Notes: generated by a model from the sequence alone, not told the origin. DNA of 62,008 bases from Candidatus Woesearchaeota archaeon (GCA_964589955.1 CAZPVF010000001.1:1-62008); one strand, 5' to 3'. Positions 50,612 to 52,716 are shown, numbered from the stretch's first letter. A program made the numbers and translations.

Positions 50612-50625
50612 TTTGTGCACAAAGG
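50612..50625. repeat. right copy of the 14-nt direct repeat, TTTGTGCACAAAGG (also a perfect 12-bp palindrome TTTGTGCACAAA)
   Basis: Begins 2 nt after the stop codon of the 49951-50610 gene. Confidence 0.6.
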
Positions 50626-50668
50626 TAACCTAAGTATCTGTCGAAGATGTGTCTTACTGTTTGTTTTA

Positions 50669-50809
50669 GGGTGTTTATGCGTTTAAACACCTATTTTATC
50701 GTCGATAAATAAAAAAACATTAATTTTTTTAAACAGCTGTTTAAACGCGTTTATTGCTGTCTATGTGTTTAATAAACAGCTGTTTATTGTAAAATTGCTG
50801 TTTAAACAG
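50669..50809. promoter_or_regulatory. cluster of AAACAGCTGTTT-type palindromes (operator-like) upstream of the 50935 gene
   Basis: GGTGTTTATGCGTTTAAACACC (50669-50691), TTATCGTCGATAA (50696-50708), TTTAAACAGCTGTTTAAA (50728-50745), AATAAACAGCTGTTTATT (50771-50788), CTGTTTAAACAG (50798-50809). Confidence 0.6.
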
Positions 50810-50814
50810 TTCTT

Positions 50815-50844
50815 TTTTCCACTGGAAACGCTGGGGCTCCGACA
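50815..50844 (+). promoter_or_regulatory. ORB-like (origin recognition box) 30-mer, copy A
   Basis: TTTTCCACTGGAAACGCTGGGGCTCCGACA: TTCCA-N3-GGAAA dyad plus GGGG string, as in archaeal Orc1/Cdc6 binding sites. Confidence 0.6.
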
Positions 50845-50934
50845 CATATTTTAAAAAGAATTTTATCGACGGAAAGTACTAAGCAATAGTAATAAAAACG
50901 AAATATTTATATAGTAAACAGCCCTCATTTCTAT

Positions 50935-51555
50935 ATGTTTTTATGGTTTAGAAAAAATAAAGAGGTTGCACGTGTTGAAGAGGATACAAAGAAAGGATTT
51001 GAAGCTGTAAAAAAAGATATTACTTCTATGACTGGTTGGATTAAACACCTAGATTCTGAAAAAAACATGCAAAAAAAAGACATTGATGATATAAAAACTG
51101 TTTTATCGTCGATGCATTCTGAAATTGAAAGTCTGAAAAATATTCTTGCAATGATGAATGAAATGAAAGTTAAGCCGTCATTCCAAACACCTAAACAGGT
51201 GTTTGATAAACAGGCAGGTGTTTATGCTGTTCAAACAGGTGTTGAAACAGGTGTTCAAACACCCAATTTAGACCAATTTTCAGTAACTGAGAAAGCAATT
51301 TTGTGGATACTTTTAAATAGTGACATGAAGCTGAGTTACGATGATCTAGCTGCAATTTTAGGAAAAACACGTTCAACAATTAGAGGCCAGATAAATAGAA
51401 TCAAACAAAAAAAAGAGAATATAATAAGTGAGATAACAGAACAAAATGGTAAAAAAAGAGTCTATATTGAAGACCATATAAAAGAAGAATTAATGAAAAA
51501 CTCAAAAGTAAGAGTAGAACATAAGAGAAAATCTAAGAAAAAAAGCAAAAAATAA
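50935..51555 (+). CDS. coiled-coil plus C-terminal winged-helix DNA-binding protein (paralog 1)
   Basis: 206 aa; N-terminus FEAVKKDITSM...EIESLKNIL; repeat linker; C-terminus VTEKAILWILL...SYDDLAAILGKTRSTIRGQINRIKQK; Lys-rich tail. Confidence 0.6.
   Translation: MFLWFRKNKEVARVEEDTKKGFEAVKKDITSMTGWIKHLDSEKNMQKKDIDDIKTVLSSMHSEIESLKNILAMMNEMKVKPSFQTPKQVFDKQAGVYAVQTGVETGVQTPNLDQFSVTEKAILWILLNSDMKLSYDDLAAILGKTRSTIRGQINRIKQKKENIISEITEQNGKKRVYIEDHIKEELMKNSKVRVEHKRKSKKKSKK
51185..51268. repeat. five AAACAGGTGTT-type repeats inside the linker-coding part of the 50935-51555 CDS
   Basis: AAACACCTAAACAGGTGTTT (8-bp-arm palindrome), then AAACAGGCAGGTGTTT, CAAACAGGTGTTG, AAACAGGTGTTC, AAACACC; encodes QTPKQVFDKQAGVYAVQTGVETGVQTP. 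Confidence 0.7.
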
Positions 51556-51577
51556 GGTAAAATATGTAAAAAATACT

Positions 51578-51896
51578 AAAAAGTGAGAAAAAGCACTAAA
51601 ATAAAGGGTTTTTAATTTATTAAAAATCAAAAAGTGAGAGTTAAAAAAGGTTTATTTTAGACTAAATTAAGTTTAAAATATCAAAAATAGAGAGTTATTA
51701 GGGCCTAAAAGTATAAAATTTAAAGAAATGAGGGTTAAATGGGTAAAATTTGTTGTGTAAAAGTAAAAAATGAGAGAATTACGTTTAAAAAAATATTCTA
51801 AATCCAAGAAAATGAGAGTTGAATTAAAGAGTAATGTATAAGGGATTTTAGGAAAAACTTATTAATTTTATGCTGATTTAAAAGCGAGAAAGGGCT
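51578..51896 (+). repeat. array of seven imperfect about 20-bp direct repeats (consensus AAAAnTGAGAGTTAwwwrGG), iteron-like
   Basis: Core GTGAGA/TGAGAG/TAGAGA/GCGAGA starts near 51583, 51634, 51688, 51729, 51771, 51813, 51884; all same orientation; spacings 51, 54, 41, 42, 42, 71 bp; lies in the convergent intergenic region. Confidence 0.7.
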
Positions 51897-51975
51897 GAAT
51901 TTAGCCATTTCAACAAATAGAAGTCTATTTAGATAGTTATTCGGTGAACGTAAAAACTAATTAATGCTAAATAAT

Positions 51976-52716
51976 TTATATCTTAATAAGTTGCATTATG
52001 GTGGATAATGACGCAATTTTTTTTAAATCAGGGGATACAGACAGCTGTACACATTTATTATTTAATTTCTTTTTGTCGACGGGAATTCCTTTAAATATTA
52101 GCCTTCCTATATAGTCTCTAATAGAGCTCTCTGTTAGATTTAGTTTTGTTGCAAGGGTCTTATAGTCTGTGAATCCCTTCTCTTCGTCTAGCTGATAAAG
52201 TGTTGAAAAAACAAGAATTTCTTTTTCTGTGAGTCTCTTAAACTTAAGCCTTATTTCTTTTTTAAGGGGCTCTAGACTATCTAAAATTTCTGCAGCACTC
52301 AAAATTGGATTAGGATCTTTAGGAGTAGTTTTAAGCATGATTTTATCGTCAAACAAGTAATTTTCTGTCTGTCTGTCTGTCTGTCTGTCTGTCTGTCTGT
52401 CTGTCGGAACCCCTCCATTTCCAGTGGAAATATGCCTAATTTGGTCATTTCTAGGCTTAATATGTGTCTGATCTGCTGAAGAAATCGTGTTATTTGTGGG
52501 AAAAGGTTCTTTATGTGTCTGAATTATAGGTTTGGTTGTATATTTATTTTTTTTAATAATTTTTAGCTCATCTTGTCTAATTTTTTGCATATCTTTAGAC
52601 AAAAGTCCGAGCCGCCAGTTGACTTCATTAAGTGTGTTTTTTAGTGAATCAATTTCAAAATGAAGTGAATCAATATCTCTTTTTACTTTTTTAAAAGCGT
52701 CTTTAATTTGATCCAT
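51976..52716 (-). CDS. coiled-coil plus C-terminal winged-helix DNA-binding protein (paralog 2) with a (TDRQ)n linker
   Basis: 246 aa; N-terminus FKKVKRDIDSL..EIDSLKNTL; linker TDRQTDRQTDRQ; C-terminus LTEKEILVFSTL...DYKTLATKLNLTESSIRDYIGRL. Confidence 0.6.
   Translation of the reverse strand: MDQIKDAFKKVKRDIDSLHFEIDSLKNTLNEVNWRLGLLSKDMQKIRQDELKIIKKNKYTTKPIIQTHKEPFPTNNTISSADQTHIKPRNDQIRHISTGNGGVPTDRQTDRQTDRQTENYLFDDKIMLKTTPKDPNPILSAAEILDSLEPLKKEIRLKFKRLTEKEILVFSTLYQLDEEKGFTDYKTLATKLNLTESSIRDYIGRLIFKGIPVDKKKLNNKCVQLSVSPDLKKIASLSTIMQLIKI
52365..52405. repeat. tetranucleotide microsatellite (CTGT)10 on the plus strand, (GACA)n on the coding strand
   Basis: Ten perfect units counted directly; lies inside the 51976-52716 CDS between the coiled-coil and wHTH parts. 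Confidence 0.95.
52402..52431 (-). promoter_or_regulatory. ORB-like 30-mer, copy B (inverted relative to copy A; inside a CDS)
   Basis: Reverse complement ATTTCCACTGGAAATGGAGGGGTTCCGACA, 25/30 identical to copy A; encodes ISTGNGGVP. Confidence 0.6.

Follow-up and report, generated by a model that had tools for sequence, protein, structure and literature searches.

A gene pair fixed beside the replication origin of Nanobdellota carries a candidate origin recognition box and further putative DNA sites within its codons

We describe a two-gene locus in a 62,008-nucleotide (nt) stretch of DNA, hereafter the window, from a Candidatus Woesearchaeota archaeon (GCA_964589955.1 CAZPVF010000001.1:1-62008). 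The two genes, called A and B here, face each other and are both predicted to encode winged helix-turn-helix (wHTH) proteins. As judged by comparison of loci across species, the A-B locus is a fixed chromosomal block beside the replication origin (oriC) in Nanobdellota (Woesearchaeales/Pacearchaeales-type DPANN), and its DNA, coding sequences included, is under strong nucleotide-level selection involving at least four motif classes. One of these motifs lies in the codons of B and, scored with a matrix, is indistinguishable from the origin recognition boxes (ORBs) of the lineage itself. We favour, with a probability slightly above even (about 0.55), a reading in which the locus is an origin-flanking, site-specific nucleoprotein hub that would at least autoregulate A and couple the pair to the initiator Orc1, and that plausibly plays a structural part at the origin flank.

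The synteny set contains one genome per species: 328 species encode a relative of A, and 80 loci were fetched. Independent metagenome loci were picked solely by a 19-nt motif upstream of A, and the contig comparison set amounts to 120. The initial annotation of the window had already pointed to the facing 3' ends of the two genes. B is convergent with A, and placed just 3' of it, in 80/80 fetched loci, and the pairs are convergent in 66/66 independent metagenome loci. Wherever the contig is long enough the same order is read: A (+), B (-), a gene for a 92-amino acid (aa) wHTH protein (w92), a gene for a 135-aa protein (p135), a PRC-barrel gene (PRC), oriC, orc1 (+) and the gene of the polD small subunit. 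Across the 80 loci, B is found in 80, w92 in 73, PRC in 71 and orc1 in 59. The locus stays on one side only of the single oriC, at a distance of about 1.3-3.4 kb, and this layout is kept in well over a hundred related genomes and metagenome contigs. The upstream side of A varies between loci, XerA and an HNH/recombinase-like gene being frequent there. In the window, the oriC and orc1 noticed at first reading are indeed close by, with ORBs at 54009(-) and 54343(+).

The element inside B was recognized with a matrix trained only on 84-85 ORBs from PRC-orc1 intergenic regions and run, with a 12-bit threshold, along both strands of 857 kb of sequence. Matches number 182 at oriC and, in B, 82 on the sense strand (78/81 loci, median 23 bits) and 2 on the antisense strand; a further 11 precede A, and the 4 located elsewhere do not exceed 15.5 bits. 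When the window was left out of training, the only positions in it reaching at least 8 bits were 54009(-), 54343(+), 54244(+), 52431(-) and 50815(+), of which 52431(-), in B, and 50815(+), upstream of A, are the only matches outside oriC in the 62 kb. In the consensus alignment the left oriC box reads TTTCCAta.GAAAtcAagGGGtGaG and the B element TTTCCAc.GGAAATgAAGGGGTTcCaACAGACAGA. The latter always has the polarity of the left oriC ORB, is separated from the closest oriC ORB by a median of 1638 nt, and occupies codons 96-105 of the open reading frame (ORF), not intergenic DNA. Compared with oriC ORBs it carries an extra conserved tail, yTyCrACAsA, which in B continues into (ACAG)n; shorter copies of this tail number 160 in the B linker, all on the B sense strand, and are found on both strands upstream of A. 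The pair of ORB-like inverted repeats listed in the initial annotation is borne out: the 29-nt arms (50816-50844 and 52402-52430), 1557 nt apart, are 86% complementary and both read TTTCCACTGGAAA-N4-GGGG, which is the ORB pattern.

The motif TTTCCA-NN-GGAAA-Y-NNN-GGGG-yTyCrACAGACAGAC is found in every B gene that can be aligned across the linker (72 genome loci), and the ORB with its tail is present in 51/51 complete B genes of the independent metagenome loci. An intact TTTCCA is seen in 68 of the 72 aligned copies, and an intact GGAAA and GGGG in 71 each. The central dinucleotide has 7 variants, which give Thr, Ile, Asn, Ser or Lys, and the 3-nt spacer codon has 11, which give Glu, Gln, Lys, Arg, Gly, Val or Asp. 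In these alignments the variation sits exactly at the positions that are degenerate in ORBs, and the amino acid follows. Relative to the codon usage of neighbouring genes of the same loci, otherwise rare codons are fixed both in the element (Ser TCC rises from 7% to 100%, Gly GGG from 22% to 99%) and in the tail (Asp GAC from 22% to 100%, Gln CAG from 32% to 97%). Among pairs sharing the amino acid, the identical-codon fraction reaches 0.945 in this segment of B, against 0.48 in the B wHTH and 0.51 in orc1. ORC1/Cdc6 is reported to be a single-copy core gene of the phylum (bioRxiv 10.64898/2026.05.13.725050), and there is therefore no obvious second initiator for these ORB sites.

We reject a recent spread of the B linker segment by horizontal transfer or gene conversion, since a recent transfer would leave the whole segment uniformly identical and the observed variation is concentrated at the degenerate ORB positions. 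The tetranucleotide tract first noted as (CTGT)10 within a coding sequence is (TCTG)10.5, 100% perfect, and does lie inside B. Across loci the longest perfect ACAG run comprises 1-10 units, the window being in the top class. A short-read contig of the same organism (Logan contig SRR7051284_31682, L081) ends inside B at (ACAG)n, about 138 codons before the C-terminus; a break is expected there, as the 42-nt repeat exceeds the typical assembly k-mer, and it is probably such an assembly effect, length heterogeneity being the alternative. The full-length B of the window is not in the protein database (best match 63% identity); A is there at 100%.

Other motifs are embedded in the two genes. Our codon alignments indicate that most motifs of the locus are fixed at synonymous codon positions across species, a feature missed in the earlier reading. 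In A, TTTTATCGTCG comes with Ser TCG-TCG in 94% and 91% of sequences, compared with 4% in the background. In the linker of A, the residue at the palindrome centre is Gly, Ala or Pro depending on whether the central dinucleotide is GG, GC or CC, and the identical-codon fraction of the array is 0.88 compared with 0.56 in the A wHTH. In B, TTTTGTCGACG is associated with Val GTC (93% vs 9% in the background) and Pro CCC (77% vs 15%). In other loci the first copy of the iteron, AAAGTGAGAGTT, supplies the Lys-Val-Arg-Val codons near the C-terminus of A, Val being GTG in 99% of cases vs 11%. By this measure the TTTTATCGWCG and AAAGTGAGAGTTA motifs are fixed in codons.

The five repeat systems initially described in about 2 kb are all in place and occur almost nowhere else in the window. 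With at most one mismatch, TTTTATCGWCG matches 6 times, always within 50694-52351, for 0.66 expected, and AAACAGSTGTTT matches 11 times, 9 of them within 50685-51256, for 1.9 expected; 0/100 shuffles reach 6 for the former or 11 for the latter. Most embedded motifs fall in predicted disordered segments, which would explain why the A and B proteins tolerate them. The boxes in the A helix and in the B wing are the exceptions.

The 300 nt or so upstream of A are conserved and structured as well. They contain, in this order, a palindrome-like element, inverted tail motifs, a distal TTrTCGWCG box, the arrays, an ORB in some loci and a second box. The palindrome-like element is found upstream of A as 1-5 same-strand copies in most loci; the window has copies at 49872 and 50616, for 0.34 expected. 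Tail motifs reach 0.93/kb upstream of A vs 0.02/kb elsewhere, and the AAACAS-STGTTT class 7.2/kb vs 0.07/kb. The arrays there take the form GGTGTTTAAACAGsCTGTTT, in which successive TGTTT are mostly 10 nt (138 cases) or 13 nt (83) apart. Every motif class is 30- to 100-fold denser at the locus than in the remaining 690 kb that were fetched. A TATA-like motif, the putative A promoter, is found 20-39 nt upstream of the A ATG in 66 loci. B has a simple promoter region of its own, the gap to the upstream gene having a median of 53 nt. In metagenomes, the 19-nt composite GTGTTTAAACAGSCTGTTT is located 125-296 nt upstream of an A homologue in 96/105 evaluable cases. Seven of the nine other matches are isolated in unrelated contigs, several of them GC-rich, and two are near a xer/HNH-type gene without A. 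This almost constant association with A argues against sites spread over a regulon. In rare cases the array is not followed by A: in one DPANN-like contig, Ga0172381_10305139 (L084), a TGTTT/AAACAG array beside xer has an unrelated ORF (MVVIRVMSLGEAKRY...) after it in place of A.

The spacer between A and B varies from 48 to 590 nt across species, with 48-65 nt in several. Seven iteron-like repeats had been announced in the window, and the spacer does show seven readable copies (near 51579, 51631, 51685, 51726, 51767, 51809 and 51880). Taken alone they are not significant there, a strict 13-mer with at most 2 mismatches giving 5 matches in the window for 4.2 expected; the motif is convincing only through the cross-species data. 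Across species, all 189 copies of AAGTGAGR in A and the spacer are on the + strand and none is on the - strand, the density being 5.6/kb vs 0.06/kb elsewhere. In nearly every case the spacer includes copies of AAAAGTGAGAGTTA, all on the A-sense strand. Close to the B stop codon the spacer also holds a conserved AGTTATTCGGT element. The oligo-T tract, in B sense, within the AGTTATTCGGTGAACGTAAAAACT element could be a terminator. When this element downstream of B was examined as an RNA hairpin in 68 sequences, 71% of cells pair and covariation is not above shuffles. Rfam, at gathering as well as permissive thresholds, gives no match in the locus. Scans for bacterial-type promoters and terminators are uninformative in an archaeon, and GC skew follows gene orientation and does not discriminate between candidate origin positions.

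Table 1. Features of the A-B locus and of the adjoining origin in the window
Feature	Position	Strand	Remarks
Palindrome-like element TTGTGCACAAAGGTAACCTAAGT	50612-50640	+	left edge of the A upstream region
Inverted tail motifs ATCTGTCGAAG / ATGTGTC (reverse complement of CTTCGACAGAT)	50636-50655	-	arrangement recurs in other loci
TGTTT / AAACAS-STGTTT half-site array	50658-50812		perfect AAACAGCTGTTT at 50731 and 50774
Distal box TTTTATCGTCGATAAAT	50694-50710		near-palindrome; box class upstream of A in 51/80 loci
ORB-like box TTTTCCACTGGAAACGCTGGGGCTCCGACACA	50815-50846	+	upstream of A; 12.7 bits with the oriC-ORB matrix of other genomes
Promoter-proximal box TTTTATCGACG	50861-50871	+	abuts the A transcription factor B recognition element (BRE)/TATA in most loci
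Putative A TATA box AAATATTTATATAG	50903-50916	+	about 26 nt before ATG
Gene A	50935-51555	+	206 aa; N-terminal long helix, disordered linker, wHTH, basic tail
TTTTATCGTCG box in A coding sequence	51101-51111	+	codons Leu57-Ser58-Ser59
AAACA-SS-TGTTy palindrome array	51184-51265		12-nt period; A linker codons
Convergent A-B spacer	51556-51975	+	420 nt; purine-rich on + strand; AAARTGAGRG-type direct repeats
Conserved element AGTTATTCGGTGAACGTAAAAACT	51935-51958	+	just 3' of the B stop codon; nearly all loci
Gene B	51976-52716	-	246 aa; N-terminal helix, disordered linker, MarR-like wHTH
TTTTGTCGACG box in B coding sequence	52071-52081	+	codons Pro-Val-Asp-Lys of the wing
(ACAG)10.5 tract (TCTG on + strand)	52364-52405	-	perfect; encodes TDRQTDRQTDRQT
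ORB in B linker codons	52402-52431	-	ATTTCCACTGGAAATGGAGGGGTTCCGACA; 21.0 bits with the oriC-ORB matrix of other genomes
B promoter region, AAAGTTTTTATAC-type TATA	52717-52771	-	conserved; simple, B's own
oriC	53983-54368		canonical; ORBs 54009(-) and 54343(+) flank an AT-rich stretch
orc1	54463-55674	+	adjoins oriC

Proteins A and B have a common layout consisting of a helix, a disordered linker and a wHTH. The AlphaFold model of A shows a helix at residues 2-77, disorder at 78-108, the wHTH at 117-188 and a disordered basic tail. That of B has a helix at 2-58, segments with a predicted local distance difference test (pLDDT) score <50 over 61-133 and the wHTH at 137-245, most 10-residue blocks in 161-230 averaging a pLDDT of at least 90 (AF2 model). 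The initial annotation took the two proteins for paralogues. Profile-profile comparison (92.5% probability, E 5e-7, across the wHTH) and the shared layout support this view, and BLASTP reaches an E of about 1e-3 only; the paralogy is reasonable but not proven. In Pfam, B marginally passes the generic HTH_36 (27.0 bits for a cut-off of 25) and A matches MarR_2 at E 0.25 only. The B wHTH is most similar to MarR-family proteins in Foldseek (E 1e-4 to 1e-3) and to Lrp-type HTH proteins in sequence (E about 0.01), and it is weakly similar to phage O-like (PHROG 391, E 3e-4) and DnaD_N (E 2e-3) domains. Against PDB, NCBIfam and PHROGs, the A and B sequences show similarity of a generic HTH kind only. 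No Rep family reaches threshold for A or B in Pfam, NCBIfam and PHROGs, and no homology to ParB, SegB or AspA is detected in Pfam, NCBIfam and PDB sequence searches.

Each family counts more than 2000 database proteins at E <=0.001, nearly all of them unnamed, and the labelled relatives are from Nanoarchaeota, Woesearchaeota or Pacearchaeota. B proteins are only about 50% identical between species. The wHTH regions of A and B hold many invariant residues, which would fit invariant DNA targets; in the sampled loci, recognition-helix residues and motif variants are both nearly invariant. At the N-terminus of A (50935-50950) M-F-x-W-F is invariant or nearly so family-wide. This short hydrophobic, aromatic segment lies ahead of the long helix and might serve as a tip that binds the membrane or a partner.

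In the nucleoprotein hub that we favour, the Orc1/Cdc6 encoded next door would bind the ORB inside B and, in a minority of species including that of the window, the second ORB before A. A and B would be dimers held by their long N-terminal helix, with the wHTH at the end of a flexible linker, and their targets would be the phased AAACAS-STGTTT/TGTTT arrays, the TTTTATCGWCG boxes and the AAAGTGAGAGTTA direct repeats. These candidate A/B sites extend over the A promoter, the coding regions of both genes and the convergent spacer. At the least, A would be autoregulated and the A/B pair coupled to Orc1 occupancy; a structural role at the origin flank could consist of centromere-like anchoring or of initiator buffering. 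The number of sites, their phasing, their extreme conservation and their apparent restriction to a single locus suggest such a structural role and resemble an ordinary regulon less. Two proposals of the initial annotation bear on this point. A centromere-like locus would be compatible with the data: the clustering and phasing of the sites and the origin-proximal location fit, though the sequence searches detect no ParB, SegB or AspA homology and the conserved block encodes no partition NTPase. Control coupled to Orc1 is likewise compatible with the data, and the more general idea, an unusual and organised group of cis elements set about a pair of DNA-binding proteins and tied to Orc1 and oriC, is supported.

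Several observations weigh against the hub. Except for the HTH_36 match of B, no characterised family is found for A or B above a curated threshold in Pfam, NCBIfam, PHROGs and PDB sequences, and the conserved gene block contains no NTPase partner. The assignment of proteins to motifs is entirely our inference. Most loci do not have the ORB upstream of A, which exists in about 11-13 of 77-81. The complete (100%) strand specificity of the iteron-like motif would also agree with a function in RNA, and, since all the embedded motifs are transcribed, selection could act on them at the RNA level. Finally, the restriction of the motifs to this locus is drawn from neighbourhoods of about 10 kb, one 62-kb window and one composite 19-mer.

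The main rival is a plain transcriptional circuit that takes no part in replication or segregation. A and B would repress their own genes through upstream and intragenic operators and DNA looping, and Orc1 would double as a transcription factor or roadblock at ORB-like operators. We hold it to be rather unlikely, even though the TTrTCGWCG box abuts the A BRE/TATA in most loci, with the arrays just upstream, and the B wHTH is MarR-like in fold. Intragenic auxiliary operators exist (lac O2, gal OI), and Orc1-type proteins serve as regulators in some archaea. However, operators usually turn over, whereas here several motif classes are kept at synonymous sites in spite of the low identity of B proteins. 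The block never leaves oriC, and the circuit does not account for about 20 half-sites or for the need of sites in both coding sequences as well as in the spacer. In part it overlaps the minimal version of the hub.

RNA-level function comes next, and we consider it distinctly unlikely. The mRNAs of A and B, or a transcript of the spacer, would contain structures or protein-binding motifs that control, for example, translation or mRNA stability. All the embedded motifs are transcribed, AAGTGAGR is confined to the A-sense strand (189 to 0), and the palindromes could form hairpins. Yet the B element fits the oriC ORB matrix in its dyad, its spacing and its G-string, for which an RNA element would have no reason, and the same palindromes and boxes are found ahead of the predicted A promoter as well, with 10-nt phasing. 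Moreover, palindrome centres vary between GG, GC and CC without compensation, the single hairpin examined shows no covariation, and Rfam has no match.

A second, accessory origin would have its ORB-like boxes recruit Orc1, its AT-rich A-B spacer unwind, and A or B act as a dedicated initiator. Two ORB-like boxes in inverted orientation, the AT-rich and repeat-bearing spacer, and the weak similarity of the B wHTH to phage O-like and DnaD-type replication domains could be taken in this sense, as could the situation in Sulfolobus, where every origin is beside its own initiator gene (PMC12141716). The architecture argues otherwise, and we find this explanation very doubtful. The boxes are separated by 1557 nt and two genes, and their G-strings face inward, the reverse of the oriC polarity; the upstream box is missing from most loci; the spacer shrinks to 48-65 nt in several species; and the similarities to initiator domains are below any curated threshold. 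The accessory or plasmid-derived origin of the initial annotation also clashes with a block that is chromosomal and syntenic and for which plasmid and virus searches are empty.

A phase-variable switch, proposed at the same time, would toggle B through slippage of (ACAG)n. A perfect 10.5-unit tetranucleotide in a coding sequence, whose unit length is not divisible by three, and a short-read assembly of the same organism that breaks exactly at the tract speak for such a switch. We nevertheless regard it as highly improbable: all 76 full-length B ORFs of the codon alignment are in frame through the tract, as are 51/51 metagenome B genes, the tract encodes a conserved T-D/N-R/Q-Q (TDRQ-type) repeat, and it is conserved within the ORB-plus-tail, substitutions interrupting the tracts of most species so that the longest run is mostly 3, 4 or 7 units. 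Scarcely credible is a remnant of an integrated plasmid or virus with Rep or partition genes and iterons, suggested by the tyrosine recombinase and the HNH/recombinase-like gene 3-4 kb upstream and by the iteron-like repeats: the supposed integrase is not a mobile-element enzyme but the XerA equivalog (NF040815), itself syntenic in 30/80 loci, a search of 2.9 million viral contigs gave no match to the ORB-plus-tail pattern and one of 72,556 plasmids no tblastn match to B, the locus shows no composition break in a window of about 30% GC, and A relatives occupy a constant chromosomal position in 328 species genomes.

Going beyond the hub, it is possible, at well below even odds, that Nanobdellota carry an undescribed module for the organisation or segregation of the origin flank, made of two coiled-coil wHTH proteins and Orc1 on sites within their own linker codons and serving as a centromere-like anchor or an initiator buffer. 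The anchor might be tied to the membrane through the near-invariant hydrophobic MFGWF N-terminus of A. If true, this would be an archaeal counterpart of parS within parB built from unrelated parts, and a clear case of selection on DNA sites dictating the sequence of a conserved protein segment. DPANN have so far been beyond genetic study. With defined short motifs and 3-4 small proteins that can be made recombinantly, the organisation and segregation of the origin region can be tested in vitro.

Independently of the module, the data suggest that an ORB can persist inside a coding sequence over long evolutionary time, and searches confined to intergenic regions would miss such Orc1 sites. Conserved 'protein motifs' in disordered regions, such as ISTGNxGVPTDRQT and QTGVQTGVQT, look like footprints of DNA and not of protein function. 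The block A, B, wHTH, unknown gene, PRC-barrel, oriC, orc1, polD also provides a practical landmark for Nanobdellota origins.

Some neighbouring features deserve mention. Three minus-strand genes at 52772-53831 always separate B from oriC and encode the 92-aa wHTH protein, the 135-aa protein, which has no family match, and an 86-aa PRC-barrel protein (YlmC/YmxH-like, E 4e-7). Together with orc1 and the polD small subunit gene they form a conserved 'origin island'. PRC-barrel proteins have been linked to cell division in archaea. Within oriC, both ORBs have their G-string on the side away from the AT-rich stretch, whose core (54065-54117) is made of TATAT-type tandem repeats with periods of 5, 15 and 20 nt; 54244(+) is a third, weaker ORB-like site (10.6 bits).

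On the other side, XerA is encoded at 47080-47907 (237.8 bits for a cut-off of 220) and adjoins, within 46429-47907, a 212-aa protein combining HNH nuclease and serine-recombinase 'Recombinase' domains; in many relatives, too, the two genes are found together on the upstream side of the locus (xer 30/80, hnh 46/80), and no dif site was identified. The palindrome-like element at the edge of the A upstream region belongs to an element of about 24 nt, TTGTGCACTWAGGTTAnCTTAGT (49872-49891 and 50616-50635 in the window), present in 1-5 copies nearly all on the same strand. Its copies, about 400-600 nt apart, punctuate small variable genes upstream of A (L001-L080); the two in the window flank a 219-aa ORF at 49951-50610, and in one locus (L037) minus-strand ORFs read through the element as NKANLSAN. 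Further away, a single 311-aa ORF at 48398-49333(-) fuses Pyr_excise (pyrimidine-dimer DNA glycosylase) to a HAD-family hydrolase domain, and Rfam calls a transfer RNA (tRNA) of 122 nt at 38313-38434(-) (57.5 bits), without a call by ARAGORN. This tRNA, which sits in a tRNA cluster at 38.2-38.6 kb, may contain an intron.

A lineage-wide ORB kept inside a coding sequence, together with several other motif classes in the disordered-linker codons of two adjacent genes for DNA-binding proteins, has no description in the literature searched, in line with the initial annotation, which knew of no archaeal system so built. The C-terminal domain of B shares the wHTH fold of MarR and Lrp-AsnC regulators. 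However, the MarR dimerisation helices are absent, and A and B carry instead an N-terminal helix of 57-77 residues and a disordered linker of 30-75 residues. The spacer repeats echo plasmid iterons by their same-orientation direct repeats beside winged-helix protein genes, but their spacing is irregular (41-71 nt in the window), their copy number is 1-7, no Rep family is matched and the context is chromosomal and non-mobile.

The closest relatives of the B and A-upstream elements are the archaeal ORBs, with which they share the dyad TTTCCA-NN-GGAAA, the 4-nt spacing and the G-string, with orc1 1.7 kb away. ORBs, to which Orc1/Cdc6 binds at oriC1-type origins, flank an AT-rich DNA unwinding element (DUE); the elements here do not, and the pair faces inward instead of away from a DUE. 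In addition, one of them lies inside an ORF, where it constrains codons, and both carry the extra tail. An ORB-rich negative-control region near oriC2-cdc6E is said to exist in Haloarcula hispanica, and datA and DARS of E. coli are initiator-titration sites. As in those cases, initiator-binding motifs are found near the origin and outside the unwinding region, and could modulate initiation. Here, however, there are only 1-2 ORBs, in or beside genes of other DNA-binding proteins and accompanied by other arrays.

In bacteria, parS sites lie inside or next to parB/spo0J near oriC. The likeness is in conserved palindromic origin-near sites, some of them within the coding sequence of what would be their own binder, and in a single discrete chromosomal locus as opposed to a regulon. 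Unlike the ParB-parS system, A and B have no detectable ParB homology, no ParA-type ATPase is encoded in the block, and the motifs belong to several classes, not one. In Sulfolobus, the ucm motif sits inside the DUE and UBP binds hundreds of genome sites (PMC12141716), a precedent for conserved non-ORB origin motifs bound by small dedicated proteins. The motifs described here are 1.3-3.4 kb away and apparently confined to one locus, and the likeness implies no homology. The ORB is an element of a known kind, and each of these precedents shares one aspect with the locus.

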